A DNA stretch of 64,000 bases from an uncultured Anaerolineales bacterium (lineage in GTDB: Bacteria; Chloroflexota; Anaerolineae; UBA7937), in contig CAYLIE010000001.1 in assembly GCA_964383935.1 (NCBI GenBank), positions 11,073-75,072 of the forward strand, given 5' to 3'. The number at the start of each line of letters is the position of its first letter. Within the stretch, counting starts at the first letter, position 1. The translations under genes were made by a program, and so were the position numbers. Under the pieces are notes generated by a model, which was not told the origin of the DNA, did not search any database, and worked only from the letters and a program-made list of their open reading frames with translations. Of this stretch, positions 2,707 to 64,000 are shown piece by piece.

Positions 2707-4329
2707 ATGGCACGTAAGCGCTTAGGTGTAGTAACCGATGGAGCCTTCGAGGCGGGGCTCACGGTGCGGCTGGATCCGGGTTGTTCCACCGAGGATTTGC
2801 GGATCGGCAGTTTCGTGGTTGTGGAGGGACGTAGCCATAGGTTCTTCTGCACCATCACCGATATGCGACTGCAAGCCACAGATCCCGGACTTCTGGCTGA
2901 CCCACCTCGTGATGCCTCTCCTTTCGTCACCAGGGCCTTGGCGGGGGTAAGTAGTTACGCTACGGTACAGGTGAAGCCTCATCTCATGCTGGATATATCG
3001 AAAGGAGTGGGAGAGGAGACCCCGCCGGAGCCGGTGCGCACCATCCCCATGCATTTCGCCGAACTCTACGAGGCCTCGGGACTCGATTTCGCCACCGTCT
3101 TCGGCGAGGAGGGAGGGATGAACTTCGCTATGGGGGCTCCCCTCACCATGGAACTCCCCATCTGCCTCCGGCTGGATCGATTCGTGGAGCGTTCCAACGG
3201 CGTCTTCGGCCAGACGGGGACGGGGAAGAGTTTCTTGGCCCGCCTTCTCCTGGCGGGGATCATCAAATCTAAGGCGGCGGTGAACCTGGTCTTCGACATG
3301 CATAACGAGTACGCTTTCGGAGCCCAAACGGAGGATGGGGGGTGGGTCAAGGGGTTGCGCGACCTCTTCGGCCCCCAGGTGCTTGTCTACTCCCTAGATG
3401 AGGAGTGGGGAGCCCGGCGGAATGTGGATGTGACCTTGAAGGTGGGGCTCAACCAGATGGAGTTGGGGGATGTCTTGCTCCTGGCTGAGGAGTTAGAGTT
3501 GAGCCCCACGGCGGTCACCACCGCCGAGTTGGTCTATGCCCGCTTCGGAAGGGGCTGGATGAGAAGGCTGGTGGCGCTGGAGAGTGGCGATAGCGAGGCG
3601 CTGAAGGAGTTTTGCGACCTCACGGGCGCCCAATCGGAGTCCCTGAAAGCCCTTCAACGTAGGGTGAAGCGGATCGCCGGTCGGGAGTATGTGCGAGACG
3701 AGGTGGCCTTCTCCGCCATCGATGAGATGGTGGCCGCTTTGGATAGGGGGCAACATGTGGTCTTGGTTTTTGGCCGCCACGACACACCTCTCGATTATAT
3801 GTTGGTAGCCAATATCGTGGCTCGAAGGGTGCGCCGGCTATATCAAGAGAAGGTAAACAGGTACGAGGGGACGAGAGACGAGGCGGACAAGCCGCAACCT
3901 CTCCTCATCACCTTAGAGGAGGCCCACAAGTTCTTGAGCCCCCAGGTCTCCAGACAGACCATTTTCGGCACCATCGCCCGGGAATTGAGGAAGTTCTATG
4001 TGACCCTCATGGTGATCGACCAGAGGCCCAGTGGGATAGACCCGGAGGTGATGAGCCAGTTAGGGACTCGAGTGACGGGGAAACTCACTGACCAGCGGGA
4101 TATCGACAGCGTTTTCACCGGGGTAGGAGGGCGGAGTTTCTTGCGTGGGGCCTTAGAGAGTCTAAATACCCGTCAAGAGATCCTCATTCTAGGCCACGCC
4201 GTCCCCATGCCCATCGTTCTCAGGACCCGTCAGTACGACGAGGGGTTCTATAGGGCTATGGGGGCTAGAGGTAGGGAAGGGAAAGAGAGGCAGGCTCTCA
4301 AAGATATCGCCGACCTATACGGGGATTAG
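2707..4329 (+). CDS. herA: HerA-like (DUF87/FtsK-HerA superfamily) hexameric ATPase/helicase
   Basis: N-terminal HAS-barrel-like region (GVVTDGAFEAGLTVRLDP...GSFVVVEG). Walker A 'GIFGQTGTGKSF' and Walker B 'LLITLEEAHKFL'. Good RBS AGGAGAAACTG-ATG. Same operon as nurA. Confidence 0.75.
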   Translation: MARKRLGVVTDGAFEAGLTVRLDPGCSTEDLRIGSFVVVEGRSHRFFCTITDMRLQATDPGLLADPPRDASPFVTRALAGVSSYATVQVKPHLMLDISKGVGEETPPEPVRTIPMHFAELYEASGLDFATVFGEEGGMNFAMGAPLTMELPICLRLDRFVERSNGVFGQTGTGKSFLARLLLAGIIKSKAAVNLVFDMHNEYAFGAQTEDGGWVKGLRDLFGPQVLVYSLDEEWGARRNVDVTLKVGLNQMELGDVLLLAEELELSPTAVTTAELVYARFGRGWMRRLVALESGDSEALKEFCDLTGAQSESLKALQRRVKRIAGREYVRDEVAFSAIDEMVAALDRGQHVVLVFGRHDTPLDYMLVANIVARRVRRLYQEKVNRYEGTRDEADKPQPLLITLEEAHKFLSPQVSRQTIFGTIARELRKFYVTLMVIDQRPSGIDPEVMSQLGTRVTGKLTDQRDIDSVFTGVGGRSFLRGALESLNTRQEILILGHAVPMPIVLRTRQYDEGFYRAMGARGREGKERQALKDIADLYGD

Positions 4330-50065: not shown

Positions 50066-51628
50066 CTAGTCGCATTTTATCTCGAATTTCTCCGCATTTT
50101 CTTTCAATATCCCGATTTCTCGGAAAAGCGGCATAAAAGCGAGCTTGGGTCTGAGGGCGACTAGCCTCTTTTGGACCGGATCGCAATAGACCGCCTCAAA
50201 GAGAGCAGAGAGAATCTCGCTCCTCTCTTTTTTGGTCGCACTTTGCCAGGCCATCCTCATTGTCTTCAATTGATCCGCCGTGATGTCAATCTTGGCTCTC
50301 GGGGGCGGATTCAAGTTAGCTAGGGCCGCTTCGACTTCCGCCTTGCCTCGCCGGAATTGCTCTTCGTCTATCAGAACTTCCAAATAGAGGCTCTTAAGCC
50401 TCTTCAGTTTCTCCTCTAGCCTCGCTCGTTCTTGCTCTACGTTCGTTGTCTGCTCCCTTGCATTGACCAATTCCTCTATGCGAGTTTGCCAGTCAGGGGG
50501 CAGTTCAAGTCTAGTGATAATCTGCCCGATTTGCTCCTCAAGTCCTGATTCGTGAACCCGCCATCGGGGAGCGGTACAAGGGATTTGCTTGAAGTATGAC
50601 ATACAACGGTAGAAACTGACCCCGCTGCGGCTAGTCTCGCCCGTCATAGCCTTACCGCAGCCCTCGCAGATAAGCATCCCCCGGAAGAGATAGGTGCGAA
50701 ACTTAGGAGTGAAAGTTCGTGCCCTCCTCCGGTTGCGAATGCGAATCTCCTGGCACCTGTCCCACGACTCTTGAGAGACAATGGCCTGTTGCTTGCCTGG
50801 GAACCTCTGGCCCTTGTGGGTTACGTAGCCGAGATAGATTGGGCTCGTGATGGCTTTCTTTACGGTATCTCCTATCCAGAGTCTTCTACCCCAGCGAGTA
50901 TTCATCTGATAGCCCAAACGAGTCAATTCACGCGCCACACTGTTGTAGGAATACTGCCCTGTGGCGTAGAGTTCAAAAAGCTTTATCACCCCTTCACTGT
51001 CCACAGGATGCACAATCGGAATCCGCCCATCTCCTTGATCTTCGTGGCCCAAGTTGGGGCAAAGATGGTCTCCGCAGTTCGAGCACAGGCCAAGGCAATA
51101 TCCGGTTGCTAGATTGCCGAGCCACAACCCTTCCCTGGCTCGTTGGCTGAGCCCCTTCTTGATCTCCTGGCCCAAGTTCTCCGAATACCATTGGGCTAGG
51201 GCTGCAAGAATGTGCATTTGCAGTCGGCCCTCGGGCCGGGTGTAGTCGAAACGCTCTTGGATCGACACAAAGCCGATACCGTGGTCCGCCAACTGCCCCA
51301 GGTAGGTGATCGTATCTCGGAGGCTGCGGCTGAAACGATCCAACTTGTGGATTACCAAGACATCAAAAAGGCCAGCCTCTGCGTCCTTCATCATCTGCTC
51401 GAACTGTGGACGCCGAGCTGACCTTCCTGAGAAGCCAGGGTCAAGGTATTCGGAGACTACTTGCCAGCCTTCGGACTCGCAATACTCCCGGCAGCGCCCT
51501 ATTTGGGCGTCAAGTGAATAGCCCTCGGTCTGCTCTTCAGTTGATACACGCGCGTAAAGAACAGCCCTCACGATTGCACCCCAGGCTATTCTACCCGGAA
51601 GGTTGCACCTTGTCAACCCCTTGGTCAA
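50066..51628 (-). CDS. large serine recombinase (resolvase/invertase N-domain + recombinase + zinc-ribbon)
   Basis: VLYARVSTEEQ (catalytic Ser), DRFSRS, LGYQMNTRWGRRLW recombinase domain and a CEGCGK zinc ribbon. TTG start at 51628 or GTG at 51571. Confidence 0.85.
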   Translation of the reverse strand: MTKGLTRCNLPGRIAWGAIVRAVLYARVSTEEQTEGYSLDAQIGRCREYCESEGWQVVSEYLDPGFSGRSARRPQFEQMMKDAEAGLFDVLVIHKLDRFSRSLRDTITYLGQLADHGIGFVSIQERFDYTRPEGRLQMHILAALAQWYSENLGQEIKKGLSQRAREGLWLGNLATGYCLGLCSNCGDHLCPNLGHEDQGDGRIPIVHPVDSEGVIKLFELYATGQYSYNSVARELTRLGYQMNTRWGRRLWIGDTVKKAITSPIYLGYVTHKGQRFPGKQQAIVSQESWDRCQEIRIRNRRRARTFTPKFRTYLFRGMLICEGCGKAMTGETSRSGVSFYRCMSYFKQIPCTAPRWRVHESGLEEQIGQIITRLELPPDWQTRIEELVNAREQTTNVEQERARLEEKLKRLKSLYLEVLIDEEQFRRGKAEVEAALANLNPPPRAKIDITADQLKTMRMAWQSATKKERSEILSALFEAVYCDPVQKRLVALRPKLAFMPLFREIGILKENAEKFEIKCD

Positions 51629-52698
51629 GCACCCTTCGAAGGATTGTCGCTATCAACCTGCAAAGTTGCTCAACTTCCGCCGACATGATCCCGCCTCAAA
51701 GCCAAGCCGTCACCAGCGACGCCACACCAGGGAACCCGAAGTTCCCTGTACCTCCAACGGGGGTACCTCGATTCCATCGCCTTCTTCTACTCTGCCGTTT
51801 TCTCCCTTTAGGCGGAAGCCCGGCCTCGTCTCTCACATCTCACCTCAGCCGTGACTAGGCTACTTGAACCATCCGTATGCAGCGCACACTTCCGCTTCCG
51901 AATCATCTCGCTATGTCAGAACGCATCAATGCCACTCACTGGCACCAAGTCAGCAGTCTCTTCCTCAGGCCACGGTTGTCCTTCCTGTCGGCCTTCTTGC
52001 GGAAAATGAGGTCCCGGGCCGCATCTTTTCCGCTCAATAGACCTCGGCACCCTCCAGGCAGGTGCAACGCCTCATTGTCTCAACAAGCCTCCTAATCCAC
52101 GCGGCAAACTACAAGAGGGCCATACGGCTGATTGGAGGTTTTCTCGCACTCAGGACGAGGATCACCCTTCTCTCTTCTTAGAGCTCTCCGAATGTCAAGT
52201 CTCTTCCTGTTGTGCCTGATCCTACAGCTCATCCTGCATCTGGTTCGAACCGAGAAATTTACGTCGTAAAACTGGGACATCCGCCCGTACGTCAACTTTT
52301 GGATGAGCAGCCGACTGAGAAGGTACTGCCCCGGGACCGCCTCGAGCGCGGGCCGATGCTACGTCAGCGCTATGGGCTGGTCGGCCGCGCGCTCCCGTCA
52401 ACCTCGCCGACCCCCCGGCTCTTGGTCTTCTATGTTCATCTTCTTCCACAGATTGACCGATGAGTAACGCTTTCAAGGGCGACACCCTTTCCCCTGCGTC
52501 TCTTCCGATGTCACGAGCGACCTGGTGCGATACTTCTCGCACCAGGGTGGCCATCGTAGTTCCTCTCCGGAAACGCCCGTTCGCTGTCAAACAAAAAACC
52601 TCGCCATTTCGGCGAGGCAACGGATCAGCGCATCCTCTAGGGCCAGCCTTGCTGGGGAGCCAAAGCGGGCCCGCCTCCGGGGGATTTTCGTACGACCG

Positions 52699-53689: not shown

Positions 53690-53850
53690 GAGGGAGACAC
53701 GAACAAGAGATTTACGGCGTAAATTTCTTTGGTCCTGCTGCCTACCGGCCAGAGAGAGAGTGACGAGTTTTACGCCGTAAATCTCTCGGGGGCTCCTATT
53801 CGCCGTTGAGGGAGACACTGTGATAGGTTTTACGCCGTGAATCTTACATG
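53690..53850. repeat. three tandem roughly 58-60-bp imperfect direct repeats, each carrying a 13-15-bp palindrome TTTACG(G/C)CGTAAA
   Basis: Unit 1 agggagacacgaacaagagATTTACGGCGTAAATttc (palindrome 53710-24). Unit 2 ...gagTTTTACGCCGTAAATctc (53769-81). Unit 3 agggagacactgtgataggTTTTACGCCGTGAATctt (53829-41). Confidence 0.6.
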
Positions 53851-54317: not shown

Positions 54318-54970
54318 AGATCACCACCTCCTTACTACTTTTCGACTTTAGCAAAAGCGTGTCCGGCGGTCAAGGGTCAGTCTCAGACGGTTCGTCATTG
54401 TGGGGCCTGAAGGCGGCGGTGCACCGCGCCCACCCCCACGGGCCGGAGCCGAAGTCCCCGCTGGAAACCCGCTCCCGAGACAGAGGGCTACTTAGTAGAT
54501 CAATCTTCTCTTATAGGAGGATGAGCGGCGGCTTTGGCAAGCCTAGCAGAGGTCGAAAACAGCTTGCCGACAGCCGACTCGGAGCGGGCGGACTTTCGGC
54601 TCTGATGAGAGGAGGCCTCTCGCAGGGGGCGAGAAGGCGTCCATATCCCCCACCGCCGTCAACTTTTCGATGTCAAAGAGAGCGGATTTCGAAGGATATA
54701 TCCCAAGAGGGATTTATCCCCCCCGGTTTTCGGGGCTCTCCGGGCTTCTAGGAGGCCGACCGTGCTCAGGAAAGCACCCCGAGCTTGCTTAGGGTTCACT
54801 TGCCCCTGCGCTTCGCTCACGGGGTGCTGAAAACAACCCTCCGGCCTTCGGCGGGCAACTCCCCCTTCCCAGGCGGAGATGACGGGCTGTTCTCTCCTTC
54901 GCGCGCTTCTACCATTTGACTCCAATTCTAACTATGCTACAATACATGCAAAGCTATGGAGGGAAGGCGA

Positions 54971-56770
54971 ATGCACATCACCCACTTCAGGGCTAAGCAC
55001 TTTCGCTGCCTCTATGATACGGACTGGATAGCAATCCACGATTTGACCGTTCTGATCGGTGAGAACGATGGAGGCAAGACGGCAACGATTGATGCCCTTG
55101 AGATTCTGCTCACCATTAAGCCCCCCGACACAGAAGATTTTTCTTTCGTGCCAGGGAGCCAGGAGCAGCACGAACAGGAAATGGTTTTGGAGGCAAAATT
55201 CACCCTTGAGTCGAACGACGTTTCTGCGTTGCAGGAGTTCTGCAGGTACAGTAGCGAGCAGCTAATCATTCGTCGGGATTTCTCCCCGGATTCTGCTGGG
55301 CCATGGACATATAGAACGATGGTTCACGCTGATGAAAGGCTGTCTGCAGATCTGGCCGCCTATACCGTAGCTACACTCCGTGAGATAGCGGAGGAACACG
55401 GGATAGACGTCCCCTTGAGTCCAAAGGCCGACATCGTCGATGCTATCGAGACATGGCTCGCCACTCAGCCGTTGTTTGAGGGATACCGAGAGTTGCCGCG
55501 TGCCGCTCGCGACCTGCTTCCCCAGGTTCAAGTGTTCAGGTCAGCACAGGCACTTGACCCGCAGAGAGAGGTAGACGCTGTTCTCCGAACTGTCTTCGTT
55601 GCCGAGATAGATGGTGAAACATATCGGGGTAAACTGGGTGACATATCCGCTCAAATTGAAGCTAGCCTCAACGAGCGTGTGTCCAGGTTAACACCCGTCG
55701 TTCAAAAATATCGTCCTGAGATCACGGAAGTACGCGTGGATCCTCGTTTCGACTATTCGCGCGGGCTAGCCACGTCGCGCCTCCAACTCATCGGACAGGA
55801 TGGCCACCCCATAAGCCTTGACAAACGCGGAGAAGGCATCAAGCGCCAAGTGACACTGGCTGTCTACGAGTGGAATTCGGAGCTTCTAGCCGCTCGTCCG
55901 GAGGAAGGTGCCCGCCCTCTCCTCCTGGCTTTCGACGAACCCGATAGTCATCTCGACTATTACTCTCAGCGCAAGATATTTGAGATTATACGGAGTCTCG
56001 TCAAACCGGGGATTCAGATAGTCGTCTGCACCCACTCGCTTAATCTCATAAACCGCGTCCCCCTAACCAACATAAATCATTACTGCTTGGACGATCACTA
56101 TTGCACGCGGGTGACCGCTTTGCAGAGCGATGATCCCGCCACGCTTGAGTATTTCGTCGACGACATAGGCAAGAATATGGGCTTGGAAAACAGCCTCATG
56201 TTTCACGAGCGTTGTTTTCTCGTTGTGGAGGGCCCAAGTGAAATGAACGCTTTACCCCCGCTCTTTCGCGTTTGGCACGAGGACGGGCTCAGTCTAACAT
56301 CTGCTGGTATCCGGTTGCTGAACGGTCAGAACAACGTTGGAGCGAGGAATTTCGCCAAGTTCCTTAACGACAATAATCGCAATGTCGTCTTCATGCTCGA
56401 TTCGGATTCTCGAACAGATCCCACAGGCCGCGTCTTCTCTGAGGAAAGCCTTCGTCGCGCAGGTTTTGATATCGATCGCCAGGTCTTCTTCGTCGGAGAT
56501 AGGGAGTTCGAGGATGCGTTCAGTGACACGCTTTGGGCCAGAGTCGGCAATACTAGATGGCCTCCAGAAGACGGGCGACCTTGGCAACCGGATGATTTTT
56601 CAGGCCGCAGGTCCCAAGACAAGAAATTCTCCGATGGCCTTTGCGCCGCATTCCGAGCGTCCAAGCCCAAAATAGCTTATGAACTTGCGAAGCGTGTAGC
56701 CGACCCCACTGAGATCCCCGCTCAAATCCAACGGTGTTTTAAGCACGCACTGGCGTTGGCGAATTCCTAG
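54971..56770 (+). CDS. OLD-family ATP-dependent endonuclease (N-terminal AAA_15/21 ATPase + C-terminal TOPRIM)
   Basis: RBS GGAGGGAAGG. MHITHFRAKHFRC...IHDLTVLIGENDGGKTATIDALEIL (Walker A), LLLAFDEPDSHLD (Walker B), TOPRIM CFLVVEGPSEMNALPPLF...VVFMLDSD. Confidence 0.75.
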   Translation: MHITHFRAKHFRCLYDTDWIAIHDLTVLIGENDGGKTATIDALEILLTIKPPDTEDFSFVPGSQEQHEQEMVLEAKFTLESNDVSALQEFCRYSSEQLIIRRDFSPDSAGPWTYRTMVHADERLSADLAAYTVATLREIAEEHGIDVPLSPKADIVDAIETWLATQPLFEGYRELPRAARDLLPQVQVFRSAQALDPQREVDAVLRTVFVAEIDGETYRGKLGDISAQIEASLNERVSRLTPVVQKYRPEITEVRVDPRFDYSRGLATSRLQLIGQDGHPISLDKRGEGIKRQVTLAVYEWNSELLAARPEEGARPLLLAFDEPDSHLDYYSQRKIFEIIRSLVKPGIQIVVCTHSLNLINRVPLTNINHYCLDDHYCTRVTALQSDDPATLEYFVDDIGKNMGLENSLMFHERCFLVVEGPSEMNALPPLFRVWHEDGLSLTSAGIRLLNGQNNVGARNFAKFLNDNNRNVVFMLDSDSRTDPTGRVFSEESLRRAGFDIDRQVFFVGDREFEDAFSDTLWARVGNTRWPPEDGRPWQPDDFSGRRSQDKKFSDGLCAAFRASKPKIAYELAKRVADPTEIPAQIQRCFKHALALANS

Positions 56771-56778
56771 GAGGGGCC

Positions 56779-57039
56779 ATGAACAGAAACGAAATCGTCG
56801 ACACCATAAGACGTGCCGGAAGAGAAAAAACAATTCTCTGGATACGAGCATACGAAGCCGATGGCTCAATCGAACCCAGAGAGGTTGAGCCCTATAGCTT
56901 TCGTCCATCAGGCACCACGGAGTGTTTCTTCTTTTACTGCCTGCTCCACAAGGGAACTCGTAACTTCCTGGTTGACAAGATCATTGAAGTGCGACTCACC
57001 GACAAGCGCTTTGAACTGCGCTGGCCCATAGAACTATAG
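56779..57039 (+). CDS. stand-alone WYL-domain protein coupled to the OLD nuclease gene
   Basis: ATG 8 nt after the OLD stop, with RBS overlapping the stop. EVEPYSFRPSGTTECFFFYCLLHKGTRNFLVDKIIEV matches the WYL ligand-sensing fold. Confidence 0.6.
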   Translation: MNRNEIVDTIRRAGREKTILWIRAYEADGSIEPREVEPYSFRPSGTTECFFFYCLLHKGTRNFLVDKIIEVRLTDKRFELRWPIEL

Positions 57040-57345: not shown

Positions 57346-57888
57346 TTATCTTCGTTGAACCGTTTGTTGTATATCCTCAAGGAATCGGTATTCTTGGCAG
57401 GCAAGCTTTAGCTCCCAAGAGAGGGTTTTGCGAGAAGAGAAAACCACCAGCGTTTTCCCCAAATCCCTCAGGCGCTTTCCAAGATCGGCAAAGTCACTGT
57501 CCCCCGAGAACAAAATGACGCAATCCAAATCCGCCCTCTCTAGAAGAATATCAGCGGTCATCTCCACATCGAAATTGGCCTTGTATACAAAGGTGTATCC
57601 ATACAACTTCCAATAGGGATGGTCCTTGTCAATGGCGATCTTTTTGAGAGGTTTAGTGATGGTGGTAAAGCCGATCTTATCCAAATACCGCAAATATTTG
57701 GGCATTTTGCGATCGCCCTTCTTTAGGCCGGTGTAGTAGCGAAACTCCAGCACGTCAAACTCTTGTTGAACAAGGGCTTTGACCTTCTCCCAGTCGATAC
57801 TCCAGCCCAGCTTGCGCTGGGTGTAGAACATGTTGGCGCCGTCAATATATACTTTTGCTCTGGGTTTTTCCCGAGAAAGATGGGCCAT
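57346..57888 (-). CDS. NYN-domain (LabA-like, PIN-fold) putative RNase
   Basis: KVYIDGANMFY...DCVILFSGDSDFADL NYN motifs. Leaderless arrangement, TGCTATAAT -10 ending 6 nt before ATG. Confidence 0.7.
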   Translation of the reverse strand: MAHLSREKPRAKVYIDGANMFYTQRKLGWSIDWEKVKALVQQEFDVLEFRYYTGLKKGDRKMPKYLRYLDKIGFTTITKPLKKIAIDKDHPYWKLYGYTFVYKANFDVEMTADILLERADLDCVILFSGDSDFADLGKRLRDLGKTLVVFSSRKTLSWELKLACQEYRFLEDIQQTVQRR

Positions 57889-58383: not shown

Positions 58384-59166
58384 GTGAGAATGGAGGGGAT
58401 GCCCGGAGCTATCCATTGGGCTTCTGGAGGGCGCACCAGCCATGCAATGTGCCACAACCAGCCGCCCGGGGAAGCCGAATCTGTTCTCATGAAGGAAAAG
58501 CAACCCGTTCACCACACATCTGACGAACACGCTGTGTCATCGGAGCAGAGGAAAGAATATCCCCTCGGCAGAAGCATCGTTAGACGGCTCAAGAAAACAC
58601 TCAACGAAGAGTGGGACTCTTGGCTGGTGGAGGAAGACGAGGATACCTTCAAGACCCTCTACCTGACAGAGCGACGGGTGTGCATCCCCGAACATCTGCT
58701 TAGCGGCGAGATCATGGAGGACATCATGAGTCTTTTCTACTACCCCCTCTCCACCGTCAGGGAGGAGCTCAAGGAGCGCACAGAGGCAAAGGAGTTCATC
58801 TCTATCTTTGTCCAACCCTCATACACGGACACCTCTTTTGCCGTGATGGTGGCCGGAGAAAAAGCTCTGTTGACCGTCTCTGACAAGGCGTGGAACTTCT
58901 ACTGGGATAGTGAAGAGGAGATGGTGAAGGAGCTGGAGAGTTGGTATCAGATTGCTGAAGCCAGGCTCAAGGGCGGACCCAGGCTCTTCGGCGGTGATGC
59001 CTGGGCACTTGAGACCCTGCTACGGCAGGTGAGGGAAGAGGACATTCCCAGGCTGCAAGAGGAAAGCCGCTGGCGGGCTGACGAACTCCGCAGAGCCCTT
59101 GATCTTCTCTCCCGCTTGCTTGAAGAGCCACGGGATAGAGAAGAATCGCTCCAGGACCTCAGCTAG
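58384..59166 (+). CDS. hypothetical protein (acidic, helical)
   Basis: 260-aa ORF in the island. Start uncertain (internal ATGs at 58443 and 58492). No family recognised. Confidence 0.4.
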   Translation: MRMEGMPGAIHWASGGRTSHAMCHNQPPGEAESVLMKEKQPVHHTSDEHAVSSEQRKEYPLGRSIVRRLKKTLNEEWDSWLVEEDEDTFKTLYLTERRVCIPEHLLSGEIMEDIMSLFYYPLSTVREELKERTEAKEFISIFVQPSYTDTSFAVMVAGEKALLTVSDKAWNFYWDSEEEMVKELESWYQIAEARLKGGPRLFGGDAWALETLLRQVREEDIPRLQEESRWRADELRRALDLLSRLLEEPRDREESLQDLS

Positions 59167-59261
59167 GGGAGAGCAGGGAACAGAGGAGACCCCAGGCTCC
59201 CAGGAACTTGTTCCTTTGCAGGGCGAGAAAGGCCGCGAGCTACTTATACTATTATATATAT

Positions 59262-59822
59262 ATGAAGGAACGTGAACCCGATTTCGAAAACGAGAAGATA
59301 CGGGCCTGGCTGATAGGGCCTTCCTTAGAGGGTCCCGCGGAAAAGGAGCAAGATCTTGAAGGTCTCGAGAAAGACCCAACTGTCATAACCATTGATGAGG
59401 AGACCGAAGAGATATTCGAGAGTCGCGCCTATCACTTCAGGCCTGGCCCGGAGACCTTCTCTTTTCTCCTTGGCTCGCTAGCCAAGACGATGGGTGAGAA
59501 TCTTGCTGAGATCCCTCCGGAGGAGCTTGTGGATCATGTGATGGACATGATCGAAGGCACTGGTATCAAGTTCCTGGCCAAGCGGCGCAAGGAGGATGGT
59601 CGAATCACCTTTATTTTGGTGGGGATCAGTTGCCATTCACGGTCGCTCCTCGATCGCCAGGAATTGGTCAAGGAGGCCGGTTATCGCAAGGCGGTCCAGG
59701 AGTTTGAAGAGCTCCCCCTTTCAAGGGCGATCCTTTCGCCACCGGCAGTGGTCACCCTTGAGGAGTGGCGCCGCTATGCTGAGGAAGGTCCCCTCTCAAG
59801 AAGCGAACGCGAGGGAGAATAG
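59262..59822 (+). CDS. hypothetical protein
   Basis: MKEREPDFENEKIRAWLIG.... 186 aa from ATG 59262; track ORF starts at 59208. No family recognised. Confidence 0.4.
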   Translation: MKEREPDFENEKIRAWLIGPSLEGPAEKEQDLEGLEKDPTVITIDEETEEIFESRAYHFRPGPETFSFLLGSLAKTMGENLAEIPPEELVDHVMDMIEGTGIKFLAKRRKEDGRITFILVGISCHSRSLLDRQELVKEAGYRKAVQEFEELPLSRAILSPPAVVTLEEWRRYAEEGPLSRSEREGE

Positions 59823-60501: not shown

Positions 60502-60530
60502 TTGACTGTTACGGTGCCATAGGTTATACT
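60502..60530 (+). promoter_or_regulatory. sigma70-type promoter for the PAPS-reductase-like/PLD/NTPase operon
   Basis: TTGACT (60502-07), 17 nt, TATACT (60525-30), 65 nt before the ATG. Confidence 0.5.
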
Positions 60531-60595
60531 GGTTGCAAACCTAAATCCTTCTCTGCAGGTTCGCAATCTCGCACGCTACAGAAACGGGCAGGTGA

Positions 60596-61321
60596 ATGCA
60601 GGTACCAGAGTGGCTGGGGCATCTGCAAGAGGCTGAAACCGCGTACGTGCTGTTTTCGGGCGGCAAAGACAGTTCGGCGGCCCTGGTGTACACCAAGGAG
60701 CTGAGTGACGAGTTTTGCGAATCTCCTCGATTAGTAGCGGTCCATGTGGATACGACGGCGGGACTTCCTGCTGTTGAAGAGTTCTCAAAGCAGTTCTGTA
60801 GTCATGTTGGCGTGCCTCTTACGGTTTTGAGGCCTGAAGAGGACTATTTTAGTCTAGTGAAGCGTTGGGGCGTGCCGCGCCCTAGGGCGAGGTGGTGTTG
60901 CTTCCATCTGAAAATAGAGCCGATCAAGTTGTTCCTTGATGGGCAGAAGAATTACGTGGTCTTGGACGGGATGCGAAGGCAGGAATCACGGAAGCGCTCC
61001 CAGTATCCGCCCACCTACGATCATCCCCATTTTGGGCTGGTAATTCACCCAATTATAGATTGGACAAAGGACAGAGTTGAAGATTTCATTGCCTCAAGGG
61101 ACTTGCCTATCAATCCAGCGTACGAAATGGGATTCAGTTCCTGGGAGTGCTGGTGTGGTGTGTTCAAGCGAAAGTGTGAATTTGAGAAACTGCGGGATGT
61201 GGATAGGGACTTCTTCATGAAACTGGTGGAACTGGAGGATTCCCTTACAAGTGGGTATGCTTACGCCTATTTTGATGGCAAACCCTTCTACCTAAAGGGT
61301 CTACTACAGGAGAAAGATTGA
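60596..61321 (+). CDS. PP-loop ATP pyrophosphatase of the PAPS-reductase/DndC-SspD-like family with Cys cluster
   Basis: PP-loop 'VLFSGGKDSSAAL'. Cys-rich segments RARWCCFH and WECWCGVFKRKCEF suggest an Fe-S site. 241 aa. Confidence 0.65.
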   Translation: MQVPEWLGHLQEAETAYVLFSGGKDSSAALVYTKELSDEFCESPRLVAVHVDTTAGLPAVEEFSKQFCSHVGVPLTVLRPEEDYFSLVKRWGVPRPRARWCCFHLKIEPIKLFLDGQKNYVVLDGMRRQESRKRSQYPPTYDHPHFGLVIHPIIDWTKDRVEDFIASRDLPINPAYEMGFSSWECWCGVFKRKCEFEKLRDVDRDFFMKLVELEDSLTSGYAYAYFDGKPFYLKGLLQEKD

Positions 61322-61322
61322 T

Positions 61323-61859
61323 TTGCAAGTGGAAGTTGTGGCAAACCAGCATCATCGTGGAGTGATAGAACGCTTATTGGAAGGAAGGCCGTTCCGCGTG
61401 CGGCTGTACGCACTACACGTTCATGATGTCCAACTGATCAGCTCTTCGCTAGGATTGCGCTTAATCAGGCTATTGGGGTCAGATTGTACAGTAACGGTAG
61501 CTTTTGGAGACAGGCTTTGGGACACGGAGACGGGCAGCCCCAGGAACGAGTTATGTAGGCAAGTCCTCGACTTCTTGAAGGAGATCGAGGATTATGGGGC
61601 AAACGTGTGGCACGTACCAGATCCCTTGCTACACGCAAAAGTCCTATATGTTGAGGAAGAAATGCCGGGTGCCGGGCGAACGAGTCGTGCGTTGGTGAGT
61701 AGCGCGAACTTCACGGAGACGGGTATTGGCGGTAGCAACTTTGAACTGGGGATCGGTTTCGAAGACTTAGAGGCGTGCCCAATCCTGGCACAGAGCATAA
61801 AGAAGTTCACCGATGGAGTACTCGGTGCAGCCAGACCTATACCTTGGGAAGGAGTTTAG
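61323..61859 (+). CDS. phospholipase D (HKD)-like nuclease-family protein
   Basis: Single HKD-like motif HAKVLYVEEE...GRTSRALVSSANFTETG. Start 2 nt after the previous stop. 178 aa. Confidence 0.55.
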   Translation: MQVEVVANQHHRGVIERLLEGRPFRVRLYALHVHDVQLISSSLGLRLIRLLGSDCTVTVAFGDRLWDTETGSPRNELCRQVLDFLKEIEDYGANVWHVPDPLLHAKVLYVEEEMPGAGRTSRALVSSANFTETGIGGSNFELGIGFEDLEACPILAQSIKKFTDGVLGAARPIPWEGV

Positions 61860-62978
61860 ATGATGTGGTTCGAGAGGTACAACTTCAAAGAAGATCCCTA
61901 CGTGGTGCGCGATCCATTCGAGACTTCACTAGAGTTCATCCAATGGGATAGGGAGGACCTCGTACACAAGAAGAATCTTGACTTTTTCATAAGGGATGTC
62001 GTAGGTGGCTATCGCGTTGGATTGAAGGTGTATGGCGCCAGTGGCAGTGGGAAAACCTGGTTGCTGAGATATCTCCAGAAAGAATTGGTGCGGCAGCTTG
62101 GTGACGAGGTAGTTGTTCTCTATGGAAAGATTCCGCGGTTTGATCCCACGTTCTGGGTCTTCTATGACATGGTAGTGAAGGGTTGGCTCGACCATCGAAG
62201 TAGAATCCTAGAGACCATCGCAAGGACAGCCGGTGACGTGGAATCCGCATGGCAGGAGCACATAGGAGACGCTGACTTGGCAAGCTGTCTATGGAGGCTA
62301 AAGTACAAGGCTGACGAAAAGGTAACAATCAGCCTTTGTGAGCATTGGTTAAGGGGCACAAAGATTCCGGTTCGTGACCTGAGCCAAGTCGGTGCAACGG
62401 CTTCACTGGATCGCGACTACTCGAGGTATTCCGTCCTTGTCCAATTATTGGACCTAGCCTTGCAGGCTTTCGGCACATGCGTCCTCATGGTTGATGAGCT
62501 TGAGAATGCTCCTGGGTCACTCGCTCGGGCGCTCGGCGATGCCCTCAGAGACCTCTTGGATAGCTTCTCCGAGCGATTCGCATTGGCATGCAGCTACACA
62601 GCTCAAGCGGCGGACGAGTTGCTCGATAGGGGATACGGAGAGTTCTTGTTCAGGCGCTTGGAGTGGCACGTAAAGCTTGATCCAATCACGCCTGACAACG
62701 CTCCTGGCGTTTTTAGGGTCCATCATGGCACGTACCGAAAGCCTGGACATGAGGGCGATCAATTGGCTCCCTTCACGGAGCAAGCACTACGCAGGTTGTT
62801 GAGGGAAATGGAGCCAGAAAAGTGGTATCCGGGGTTCATATTCCCTAATTGTGGAGTCTTAGGGCGTCTAGCGAGTGAAGCAAGTGCTGATACGATAGAC
62901 GAGACTTTTGTGGAGACGACGGCGTTTCAGAAGCGGGAAGTCTTTCCATACCTGGGGCCAGAGTCCAGACTTATATAG
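61860..62978 (+). CDS. P-loop NTPase (AAA/ORC-like) of unknown family
   Basis: ATG immediately after the PLD stop with an AAGGAG RBS. Walker A 'VYGASGSGKTWLLRYL' and Walker B 'CVLMVDELEN'. 372 aa. Confidence 0.55.
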   Translation: MMWFERYNFKEDPYVVRDPFETSLEFIQWDREDLVHKKNLDFFIRDVVGGYRVGLKVYGASGSGKTWLLRYLQKELVRQLGDEVVVLYGKIPRFDPTFWVFYDMVVKGWLDHRSRILETIARTAGDVESAWQEHIGDADLASCLWRLKYKADEKVTISLCEHWLRGTKIPVRDLSQVGATASLDRDYSRYSVLVQLLDLALQAFGTCVLMVDELENAPGSLARALGDALRDLLDSFSERFALACSYTAQAADELLDRGYGEFLFRRLEWHVKLDPITPDNAPGVFRVHHGTYRKPGHEGDQLAPFTEQALRRLLREMEPEKWYPGFIFPNCGVLGRLASEASADTIDETFVETTAFQKREVFPYLGPESRLI

Positions 62979-63967
62979 GAGAGCTTGCCGTCCCGACCAG
63001 CTATGGCTGACTGCACTATGCCTTCATTCGCCAATCGCCTAATTAGCCGCCGCAAAGTCTTCTCTTCGAGTACGCAGTACCGTTCTATCAGTAGGCTCAT
63101 ACAGACATATACACTGATGGAACGTACGTCAGACAAGCGCAGCTGTGGTCTCTCAAAGAGGGCGTAGGCCTTACGGAACAGCTCGAGAAAACGCGCGCGG
63201 CTAGGCTTGTGCTCATATCGAAAGTCAGGGAGACATCCAGGCGCGTCACCTACGTAGGCAGATGCTGCCCAATAGATCTTCTCCTGCAGTTCAGCGCCCT
63301 CCTTGGAGAAGAGACCGAGCAGCTTCTGTGCCATGCTTGTTAACTGAAGCCGTTGAGGATTCACGAGGCCCAGTTGCTGCAACCAAAATCGGAAACAATC
63401 AAAGTTGTTCCGCACTTTCCTTGGTGGGGAGTCTGGCTGCCTAGAGAAGTGCAAGGACAAATACGCCTTGTCCTCCCAGGTGCTACAGGTGCTATTGGAC
63501 AAGACCCTTTGGCCGTAAGACGTGATGACTCGTTCTATGGGTCCGCCTGCATTCTGAGAGATGGCTCCTAGAGCAGAACTGAACTGCAACGGGAGGTACA
63601 GGGCAAGAGCGCGAAAATAGAATACCTTTTCTGCAAGTTCAAGGGTTTTGTTTGACTTTGCAGGCACCAGAGCGCAAAGCGCTTTTCCCTCGCTGGAAAG
63701 CACATAGCCGCCATTCTCGCGCGTCACTAGTCCGAGTGATTCCATGGCGCGCAAATGCCTCTTGATCACCTTGACATTCGTCAGACCCAGCTCTTTCTGA
63801 ATCAAGGGCACAAGCATATCAGTTTCCATAAGTCCTTCGGGGCGCATGATGTGGCAAATTCCCGTGAAGCGGTGCAATTGCCCCTCTGACGTGGTCAGGT
63901 CTGCCAGGAATCCAGTGCGCGAGACTTCCATGCGATTGGTATTCGCTTCCTTATCTACTATGTCCAT
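62927..63967 (-). CDS. hypothetical protein with winged-helix (MarR/HxlR-like) DNA-binding region
   Basis: LIQKELGLTNVKVIKRHLRAMESLGLVTRENGGYVLSSEGKAL. 346 aa. Convergent with the NTPase gene, ends overlapping by about 50 nt. Confidence 0.4.
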   Translation of the reverse strand: MDIVDKEANTNRMEVSRTGFLADLTTSEGQLHRFTGICHIMRPEGLMETDMLVPLIQKELGLTNVKVIKRHLRAMESLGLVTRENGGYVLSSEGKALCALVPAKSNKTLELAEKVFYFRALALYLPLQFSSALGAISQNAGGPIERVITSYGQRVLSNSTCSTWEDKAYLSLHFSRQPDSPPRKVRNNFDCFRFWLQQLGLVNPQRLQLTSMAQKLLGLFSKEGAELQEKIYWAASAYVGDAPGCLPDFRYEHKPSRARFLELFRKAYALFERPQLRLSDVRSISVYVCMSLLIERYCVLEEKTLRRLIRRLANEGIVQSAIAGRDGKLSYISLDSGPRYGKTSRF

Positions 63968-64000
63968 ACCAAACTAGGCTATAGACATATTGTACGCACA

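Follow-up and report, generated by a model that had tools for sequence, protein, structure and literature searches.

The machinery minimally required for DNA phosphorothioation (PT) comprises the functions of SspD, SspB and SspC (PMC12914056, PMC10853773). SspC is an AAA+ ATPase of the Cdc6/Orc clade that scans with the triple winged-helix (wHTH) protein SspB (PMC10853773), which belongs to one structural class with the FokI DNA-binding domain (DBD), BrxA and DndG (PMC12839542, PMC10853773). BrxP has been described as a PAPS reductase with an Fe-S region and DUF4007 (PMC12839542, PMC12914056), and BrxP, BrxC and host SufS were shown experimentally to suffice for PT synthesis (PMC12914056). A dedicated cysteine desulfurase is dispensable for Dnd, Ssp and BREX-4, and housekeeping IscS or SufS can replace it. 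[quoted passage not shown]

The locus described here lies at the end of the window, the whole 64,000-nt stretch of DNA from an uncultured Anaerolineales bacterium that was analysed. PAPSr (60596..61321, + strand, 241 aa) encodes a PP-loop ATP pyrophosphatase of the PAPS-reductase family that resembles SspD, has a predicted [4Fe-4S] site and is the predicted DNA-modifying enzyme. It is followed after 1 nt by PLD (61323..61859, + strand, 178 aa, TTG start), a single-HKD phospholipase-D-fold protein and predicted nuclease effector, and then, with a gap of 0 nt, by AAA (61860..62978, + strand, 372 aa), a standalone Orc/Cdc6-clade AAA+ ATPase predicted to be a DNA-loading or scanning motor and a functional analogue of SspC/BrxC. 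The multi-wHTH protein (wHTH; 62927..63967, − strand, 346 aa) is convergent to AAA, and the ORF coordinates of their 3' ends overlap by 52 nt (62927..62978). The four ORFs of the preliminary description, with their tight coupling (0–1 nt) and the convergent wHTH, were thus all recovered, as was the low-GC island beside OLD and WYL genes in which it had placed them: GC content is 0.47–0.53 in the island vs ~0.57 elsewhere, and OLD (54956–56770), WYL (56779–57039) and NYN (57346–57888) genes lie upstream. The promoter it had proposed fared less evenly. A sigma-70-like candidate (TTGACT-17-TATACT; 60502..60530, + strand) does stand upstream of the PAPSr-PLD-AAA operon and matches 10 of 12 consensus positions, but the region contains two promoter-type sites vs 2.6 ± 1.7 in shuffled sequences; because this count is no higher than in the shuffles, the support for the candidate is positional.

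PAPSr matches Pfam PAPS_reduct (2e-25) and, among PADLOC models, BrxP (7.7e-19), SspD (1.4e-18, over 6–215/277) and DndC (1e-7), and scores 28 bits on the NCBIfam DNA_S_dndC model vs a cut-off of 290. Its family aligns with an authentic SspD, taken from a locus with DUF4007 and SspC, over 197 columns, C-terminal segment included (hhalign 99.35%, E 5.5e-21). The SGGKDS motif, C68, C101-C102 and C185xC187 are invariant in 24 homologs; the CC pair and the first C align with the ECC and SIGC of the APS reductases 2goy and 7lhr, whose CC...C positions, matched by these invariant cysteines, we take to be [4Fe-4S] ligands. PAPSr differs from the SspD compared (RWCT...CxxC) in its C-x-C and in the additional cysteine at position 68, which is invariant. 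By score, its nearest named relatives are PUA-PAPS-reductase fusions of archaea and viruses, themselves uncharacterised (NCBIfam PRK08576 and PRK13795, ~92 bits; a protein of virus SMV2, 31% identity, 9e-33).

The ATPase exceeds the Pfam cut-offs for AAA_16 and AAA_22, and across its family AAA_22 is found in 22/22 members, AAA_16 in 20/22, ORC-CDC6-like in 10/22 and BrxC_BrxD (PF10923) in 8/22, the last with weak or sub-threshold matches (best 1.2e-7); DUF499 has no match in the family. The Walker A (G-S-G-K-T) and Walker B (D-E) motifs do not vary among 22 homologs. The AF2 model (pLDDT 93) has an Orc/Cdc6 AAA+ fold, its best PDB matches being archaeal Orc1/Orc2/Cdc6 (E ~6e-7, TM ~0.5). At the sequence level the family shows no family-level match to the 1200-aa SspC of locus L064 (hhalign E 0.27), and with a strong PF10923 protein (L051, 4.6e-60) only the P-loop aligns (E 0.011).

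The model of the wHTH protein is of moderate quality, one of five models exceeding pLDDT 51, and its sole multi-domain structural matches are the FokI DBD and BrxA; as modelled, it is a DNA binder with several wHTH domains, of the FokI-DBD/BrxA class. No sequence-level homology to DUF4007 (PF13182), the domain that defines SspB, was detected. Its true start may be the methionine at residue 13, because homologs are ~327 aa long and residues 1–20 have pLDDT <50. One homologous protein, P0135, is a natural fusion of PAPS_reduct, Fer4 and wHTH encoded in a locus that also carries PLD and AAA; this arrangement resembles that of BrxP (SspD plus SspB), although the wHTH part is not DUF4007.

PLD reaches 20.4 bits on PLDc_2 vs a cut-off of 27 (5e-4), and homologs pass that model (43.5 and 51.3 bits; 3.6e-11 and 1.3e-13). 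Its HxK (H-A-K), SxN (S-S-A-N) and ExG motifs are invariant in 14 homologs, with the D of HKD replaced by E. Nuc and BfiI, which share the fold, act as dimers. PLD also matches DrmC, at 3.3e-7 in PADLOC and at 22 bits vs a cut-off of 133 in NCBIfam. At loci L003 and L006 other small proteins occupy the PLD slot, as expected of a swappable effector. The SGGKDS, cysteine-cluster, HAK/SSAN and Walker A/B motifs that had been picked out in the window are therefore each invariant among homologs.

PLD, AAA and wHTH retain their order and orientation at 17 distinct loci in metagenomes and metagenome-assembled genomes; of the 15 loci where this can be judged, 13 have a PAPSr gene beside the core or fused to it. 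The convergence of AAA and wHTH, usually with an overlap of a few to 52 nt, is seen in most type-A loci having both genes. Because independent loci show this arrangement even at identities as low as 36–48%, the gene set lies far beyond chance. The unit had originally been drawn as the three genes that run in one direction; what stays constant is instead the core PLD-AAA-wHTH, with wHTH an integral subunit (fused to PAPSr in P0135) and PAPSr near-constant but exchangeable. The PAPSr genes of the module derive from at least two lineages, two loci (L049 and L053) have the triad with no PAPSr nearby, and a nucleoside 2-deoxyribosyltransferase-like gene stands in L049 where L051 and L052 hold PAPSr. 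The hosts span many phyla, all uncultured, and the module adjoins an integrase or transposase or sits on a serine-recombinase-bounded island. It is a conserved, mobile and rare defence-island module, apparently undescribed, and the defence-like logic of modification enzyme, nuclease and ATPase first suggested for it is supported.

The preliminary description could name no matching system and regarded the proteins as much smaller than Ssp, Dnd and BREX-4 components. The size difference holds, and PADLOC v2 recognises no system here; nevertheless, judged from sequence comparisons and models, PAPSr, wHTH and AAA appear to map one-to-one onto the functions of SspD, SspB and SspC (BrxP plus BrxC), with a predicted nuclease built in. 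The assignments of the SspB and SspC roles rest on fold class, context and fusion, because no sequence homology to DUF4007 or SspC was found and the alignment of the ATPase to a PF10923 (BrxC_BrxD) protein covered only the P-loop. The ATPase is 372 aa long compared with ~1200 for SspC, and by sequence is not SspC, DUF6079 or BrxC. As in Ssp and BREX-4, a dedicated cysteine desulfurase would not be required; none (SspA or aminotransferase-V) is present in the annotated loci L001, L005, L057 and L059–L061 or in the flanking genes scanned, which takes away a direct link to sulfur. A methyltransferase (MTase) is often nearby, as at the Pseudanabaena Ssp locus. The module differs from both in carrying an HKD/PLD nuclease within the operon and a PAPSr with CC...CxC and Cys68; PglZ, BrxL, SspA, SspE and SspFGH are absent from it, and PADLOC also gave no PglZ or BrxL matches at the loci. 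BrxP joins a PAPS reductase to a triple-wHTH module in one protein; in the window PAPSr and wHTH are encoded separately. The locus has neither an ABC-type DndD nor an RHH DndE. The mobile Orc/Cdc6 operons, by their description, likewise pair an ATPase of this family with a triple-wHTH protein that evolves rapidly, include a nuclease and lie in mobile defence neighbourhoods, but their nuclease is REase-ASCH where a standalone single-HKD PLD is found here, and the present module has a PAPSr modifier attached. Unlike FokI and BfiI, the module has different proteins for recognition and for cleavage, with an AAA+ ATPase interposed; it also lacks a PD-(D/E)XK domain.

We therefore propose with moderate confidence, and as a prediction, that this mobile module is a compact DNA modification-restriction system of the Ssp/BREX-4 type, complete in itself. 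The 346-aa multi-wHTH protein would pick out DNA sites, and together with it the 372-aa Orc/Cdc6-type ATPase would load on or scan DNA. The SspD-like PP-loop/[4Fe-4S] enzyme would then mark host DNA, drawing on ATP and on sulfur from a housekeeping cysteine desulfurase, the mark most likely being backbone phosphorothioation, and the single-HKD PLD, dimeric like Nuc and BfiI, would cleave DNA without the mark. We infer that DNA is the substrate, that phosphorothioate is the mark, that PLD cuts unmarked DNA and that the proteins act in a complex. Since PLD-AAA-wHTH persists where PAPSr is swapped or missing, the wHTH and ATPase pair probably serves modifier and nuclease alike, by analogy with the specificity subunit of Type I systems. 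Should the proposal be confirmed, the module would be the smallest Ssp/BREX-4-type system known (~1140 codons in total vs ~1200 for SspC alone), and with each function on its own small protein, nuclease included, it would offer a tractable phosphorothioate model in which to address how Orc/Cdc6 and triple-wHTH proteins choose sites, how the PP-loop/Fe-S enzyme is targeted and how the mark is read in restriction. The wHTH protein and the ATPase would also bring into the defence repertoire two families that have no Pfam assignment.

Phosphorothioation is not the only chemistry that this architecture could serve. The PP-loop/Fe-S enzyme might instead place a non-PT mark on DNA or RNA, such as base thiolation or another adenylate-activated modification, on which PLD-AAA-wHTH would discriminate. 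Dnd-like cores have been argued to mediate other modifications as well (PMC10853773), PAPSr scores about as well against the archaeal PUA-PAPS-reductase fusions as against SspD/BrxP, its C-x-C and Cys68 depart from the SspD compared, and the deoxyribosyltransferase-like gene of L049 fills the PAPSr slot. However, the sole characterised DNA-acting members of this branch (DndC, SspD and BrxP) all make PT, and a triple wHTH with an Orc/Cdc6 ATPase is a PT-specific partner set; we consider a different mark unlikely, if the most serious of the alternatives. A slightly smaller probability attaches to the four genes not being autonomous: the adjacent SNF2 helicase (BrxHII/HmaA/DrmD-like) and large N6-adenine methyltransferase (DrmMI/type-IIG-like) would then be the core of a larger BREX/DISARM/Hma-like system, the four genes its accessory half and methylation the self mark. 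Past position 64000, the wHTH strand continues with a 1333-aa type-IIG-like MTase (DrmMI, 4.7e-122), a 1016-aa SNF2 protein (BrxHII, 7.4e-185; HmaA, 1.3e-139; also a strong match to DrmD) and a 236-aa gene; large MTases, in some cases accompanied by SNF2, are found beside L005, L045, L047 and L065 too, the SNF2 stop overlapping the PAPSr start in L045; and the weak DrmC matches of PLD, like the DrmD and DrmMI matches of these neighbours, recall DISARM, which is made up of DrmA, DrmB and DrmC together with either DrmD and DrmMI or DrmE and DrmMII. Yet in L057, L059/L060 and L061 the module has only housekeeping genes around it, and in L053 and L003 its neighbours are unrelated genes; the MTases differ among loci in family (type IIG-like vs type III Mod), position and orientation; and the DrmA helicase, DrmB (DUF1998), PglZ, BrxL and the DUF499 ATPase of Hma/BREX-related systems are all missing. 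The SNF2 helicase and large methyltransferase are accordingly frequent but optional neighbours.

Two further explanations move away from DNA as the substrate. QatABCD likewise has four components, namely an ATPase, a nuclease, a PP-loop enzyme and a small partner protein, and QatC has been proposed to act on QatB as its substrate (PMC13376578). PAPSr could by the same token modify a protein partner or small molecule and so regulate an abortive-infection-style ATPase and nuclease effector, and it weakly matches the PADLOC QueC model (1.4e-5) and, in the PDB, Cap9. This is improbable, given that the enzyme falls in the PAPS-reductase/SspD rather than the QueC branch, that the protein encoded next to it or fused to it is a DNA binder with several wHTH domains and not Qat-like, and that TatD and a KAP-type ATPase are both absent, a PLD protein being found instead. 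That PAPSr is an ordinary CysH/APS reductase or tRNA-thiolation gene lying by chance beside unrelated genes is still more improbable: although the solved structures that it matches best belong to CysH/APS reductases (1e-13 to 4e-9) and its cysteine pattern is APS-reductase-like, it scores far below the NCBIfam cut-offs for cysH (49.9 vs 154 bits), APS_reductase (48.2 vs 235) and CysD, and ends ~55 residues past the CxC with an SspD-like segment in place of the C-terminal ECGLH tail. Sulfate-assimilation genes were not found nearby, and the strict co-conservation with wHTH, the fusion to wHTH and the mobile-island location also speak against a metabolic role.

Beyond the preferred reading of a single Ssp/BREX-4-type system, it is conceivable, though rather doubtful, that Orc/Cdc6 and triple-wHTH proteins form a shared targeting core with interchangeable modifiers and nucleases, at least one of the modifiers making a DNA mark chemically unlike phosphorothioate. 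The modifiers would then be two PAPS-reductase/Fe-S lineages and possibly a nucleoside deoxyribosyltransferase-like protein, and the nucleases PLD or unrelated small proteins. Such a core would amount to a minimal Type-I-like modification-restriction chassis with new chemistry.

The PAPSr clade also occurs in a second operon, ParB-ParB-DUF6602-PAPSr, which is widespread among uncultured bacteria and archaea and apparently undescribed. This operon has no ATPase, and the chemistry of the clade may therefore not need an SspC-like partner.

The operon begins with a gene for a 241-aa PAPS-reductase-like protein (PAPSr; 60596–61321, +), which is followed after a 1-nt gap by a gene with a TTG start for a 178-aa phospholipase-D-fold protein (PLD; 61323–61859, +) and, with a 0-nt gap, by a gene for a 372-aa P-loop ATPase (AAA; 61860–62978, +). 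A convergent gene encoding a 346-aa winged-helix protein (wHTH; 62927–63967, −) overlaps the ATPase gene at its 3′ end by 52 nt. All four open reading frames (ORFs) lie where the preliminary description placed them, and its domain calls are backed by Pfam and PADLOC. The promoter that it proposed at 60502–60530 is present as TTGACT-17-TATACT (10 of 12 positions matching), but such matches are no commoner in the region than in shuffled sequences. The low-GC island in which it set the module next to an OLD/WYL pair was recovered, with a GC content of 0.47–0.53 in 57–64 kb compared with about 0.57 elsewhere. A gene for a large CcrB/XisF-like serine recombinase (50066–51628, −) marks the left edge of this lower-GC island, which carries all the defence genes. 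They include a translationally coupled pair for a 604-aa OLD-family ATPase/TOPRIM nuclease (GajA/AriA/Old-like) and an 86-aa WYL-domain protein (54956–57039) and, on the opposite strand to this pair, an NYN-domain RNase-like gene (57346–57888, −). The ORFs at 58384–59166 and 59208–59822 had no match in any library searched. Between 51800 and 54900, about 3 kb without a long ORF hold four copies of a palindromic motif of about 24–33 nt with the core TTTACGCCGTAAA, one inverted at 52250–52273 and the others at 53694, 53752 and 53812 with a spacing of 58–60 nt; the stretch could represent a decayed element or a group of binding sites, and an rRNA reading was ruled out by zero Rfam matches.

Relatives of the module were sought in loci drawn from genomes, metagenomes and assemblies, the ORFs of which were scanned with seed sequences and profile HMMs. 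The PAPSr family comprises 52 close clusters, beyond which E-values jump from 1e-47 to 4e-9, and the ATPase family 31 clusters; a set of 1.84 billion proteins contained just 87 representatives of the wHTH protein, nearly all of them standalone and 310–335 aa long. The unit proposed in the preliminary description recurs elsewhere, but its conserved part proved to be PLD-AAA-wHTH (the triad), combined with an exchangeable PAPSr. In the type A architecture, PAPSr-PLD-AAA with a convergent wHTH gene, the order and orientation of the triad are identical in 17 distinct loci with ATPase identities of 36–71%. PAPSr was found in 13 of the 15 triad loci that could be judged, counts that are small and subject to contig-length bias, and is mostly the first gene of the operon. 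It is positioned behind the wHTH gene in loci L051, L052 and L061, is divergent and 359 aa long in L047, where a small HTH_ParB gene lies upstream of it, and is fused to the wHTH protein in L065, while L053 and L049 contain the triad without PAPSr. Directly behind the wHTH gene of L049, in the slot held by PAPSr in L051 and L052, lies a gene for a 184-aa nucleoside-2-deoxyribosyltransferase/SLOG-like protein (L049:3397–3951, −), which could be an alternative sensor or modifying enzyme. NurA-HerA genes are close by. Beside the triad of L051, a second-lineage PAPSr has as its partner a 391-aa ATPase with a strong match to the BrxC_BrxD family (4.6e-60; L051:4003–5993), which adds one more ATPase-PAPS reductase pairing. 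The type B architecture, found in a Dehalococcoidia MAG adjoining smpB (L003), consists of a wHTH homolog, a 221-aa protein, an AAA homolog and PAPSr. The 221-aa protein (L003:8158–8823), an unrelated protein that occupies the slot of PLD and is flanked by the wHTH and AAA homologs, has no Pfam match and may be an alternative effector. The module is rare: its protein clusters number in the tens and come exclusively from uncultured organisms, represented by metagenomes and MAGs of sediment or groundwater type. It spreads horizontally across phyla.

PAPSr matches Pfam PAPS_reduct (2e-25) and the PADLOC profiles BrxP (7.7e-19), SspD (1.4e-18) and DndC (1e-7). The PP-loop and Cys cluster noted earlier are intact, with SGGKDS, C68, C101-C102 and E184-C185-W-C187-G invariant in 24 homologs. 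Its W-C-C aligns to the E-C-C of the Mycobacterium tuberculosis and Pseudomonas aeruginosa APS reductases and its S-W-E-C to their S-I-G-C, the positions of the [4Fe-4S] ligands in those two enzymes. DndC is likewise a [4Fe-4S] PP-loop enzyme (PMC10853773). A canonical Ssp locus on a Pseudanabaena plasmid encodes a DUF4007 protein, a 1200-aa ATPase, a PAPS-reductase-family protein (SspD) and a 'phosphorothioate (PT)-associated methyltransferase', the last in parallel to the methyltransferases (MTases) that neighbor the module. Comparison of the PAPSr family profile with this SspD by hhalign gave a probability of 99.35% (E 5.5e-21, 197 columns), and the match takes in the segment after the Cys motif, outside the generic domain. 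Scores against CysH, APS reductase, CysD and DndC were far under the NCBIfam cut-offs, and the named relatives that come next are PUA-PAPS-reductase fusions of archaea and viruses, which are uncharacterised. Weak matches to the profile in the PDB were 21fy_C ('PptA', E 6.5e-3) and 9nto_B ('Cap9', E 1.2e-3).

The commonest context of the PAPSr clade is a different operon, type C, in which ParB_N, HTH_ParB and DUF6602 (or another small gene) precede a PAPSr of about 330 aa, the N-terminal extension of which contains Cys. It is carried by about 20 MAGs of Woesearchaeota, Promethearchaeota and numerous bacterial phyla (L006 and L011–L033; for example, L006:7854–11002), and contains neither an ATPase nor any triad member within the fetched flanks (up to 10 kb on each side). 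This operon appears to be undescribed; DUF6602 is mentioned in a single paper of the open-access literature searched, and the type-C ParB protein matched none of the other chains of PDB entry 21fy. A rough neighbor-joining tree resolves the PAPSr of type C and those adjacent to the triad in types A and B as two sister clades, neither of which includes the far or divergent PAPSr of L047, L051, L052 and L061. PAPS-reductase-like enzymes have therefore become partners of the triad on at least two occasions.

The PLDc_2 domain scored a sub-threshold 20.4 bits on the PLD protein of the window and 43.5 and 51.3 bits on homologs, and PADLOC gave a DrmC match for the window protein (3.3e-7). It is a single-HKD protein, as read earlier; H-x-K, S-x-N and E-x-G do not vary in 14 homologs, and Glu stands in place of the usual Asp. 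The single-HKD proteins Nuc and BfiI dimerise into one active site, and by analogy a PLD dimer would do the same. The Walker A and B motifs reported for the ATPase are both invariant in its homologs, and the window protein matches AAA_16 and AAA_22. Its AF2 model (pLDDT 93) has archaeal Orc1, Orc2 and Cdc6 as its best solved folds; ORC-CDC6-like matches were obtained for 10 of 22 family members and weak BrxC_BrxD matches for 8 of the 22. The wHTH structure model is of moderate confidence, and nothing specific emerged from the PDB when it was searched by sequence with the wHTH and ATPase profiles. Using hhalign and Pfam, the ATPase was rejected as a member of SspC and of BrxD (no family-level match, in the latter case to a strong BrxC_BrxD protein), as was the wHTH protein as a member of DUF4007/SspB. 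The fusion protein of L065 (P0135, 827 aa) joins PAPS_reduct (128–299), a 4Fe-4S ferredoxin-type segment and the wHTH module of this family (505–825), and genes for PLD and an AAA homolog (39% identity) converge on its gene. The same architecture is seen in BrxP, described as a PAPS reductase, a Cys-rich Fe-S region and DUF4007. BrxP is effectively an SspD-SspB fusion, and BrxP and BrxC with host SufS were shown experimentally to suffice for PT synthesis (PMC12914056).

By analogy with SspBCD and BrxP-BrxC, the module would provide the three BrxP/BrxC-type functions on three small proteins, with a PLD nuclease added. In this mechanism, which we infer entirely by computation, the wHTH protein and the ATPase would assemble into a site-finding core, the SspD-like enzyme would place a mark on host DNA, phosphorothioate being the most likely one, with a housekeeping desulfurase as the sulfur source, and DNA lacking the mark would be cleaved by the PLD dimer. 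Because the triad outlives the swap or loss of PAPSr and the nuclease slot is replaceable (L003, L006), the targeting core probably serves both modification and restriction. What the analysis shows directly is the gene structure, its conservation, the folds, the intact motifs, the fusion and the mobility; the inference extends to the substrate, the chemistry, the polarity of discrimination and the formation of a complex. The module is also in keeping with the 'Orc/Cdc6 + triple-wHTH + nuclease' theme of PMC10853773. Membership in DISARM, Dnd, BREX-4 and Hma was excluded by missing hallmark genes and membership in Ssp by its defining components. PADLOC v2 returned no matching system, and a full-text search of the open-access literature retrieved no prior description of this gene combination, a result that is not proof of absence. 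We rate the module as a new, compact relative of the known Ssp/BREX-4-type systems.

A modification chemistry other than PT is credible: PAPSr has an affinity to the PUA-PAPS-reductase clade and differs in its C-x-C and Cys68, the type-C operon dispenses with an ATPase, and L049 carries a different, deoxyribosyltransferase-like enzyme. Modification of a protein by the PP-loop enzyme, as proposed for Qat (PMC13376578), is unlikely in view of the affinity of PAPSr to SspD and its DNA-binding fusion partner. A role in sulfur metabolism is rejected, a CysH/APS reductase identity being excluded by the NCBIfam cut-offs, the genomic context and the fusion to wHTH. The module could also be an obligate part of a larger BREX/DISARM/Hma-like system with an SNF2 helicase and an MTase, since large MTases with or without SNF2 adjoin five loci (the window, L005, L045, L047 and L065, the last with an Eco57I-type MTase upstream) and the SNF2 stop codon overlaps the PAPSr start in L045. 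The families and positions of these neighbors vary between loci, however, and L057, L059/L060, L061, L053 and L003 contain the module by itself. The SNF2 and MTase genes are thus rejected as obligate parts and read as frequent, possibly cooperating, but optional neighbors.

Genes past 64000 were read from contigs encoding identical module proteins, L008 being the window's own contig. There, directly after the wHTH gene and sharing its strand, L008:2006–9742 contains genes for a type IIG-like N6-adenine MTase (1333 aa; PADLOC DrmMI, 4.7e-122) and an SNF2 helicase (1016 aa; BrxHII 7.4e-185, HmaA 1.3e-139, DrmD 8.7e-120), together with a 236-aa gene; the three may form a separate helicase-methylase defence system. 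Farther out on L008 are a 468-aa gene and a Peptidase_S24 fragment. At the other end of the window, distant from the island, a gene for a HerA-like ATPase (2707–4329, +; NCBIfam anti-phage HerA 2e-21, under the cut-off) may be part of another defence gene pair.
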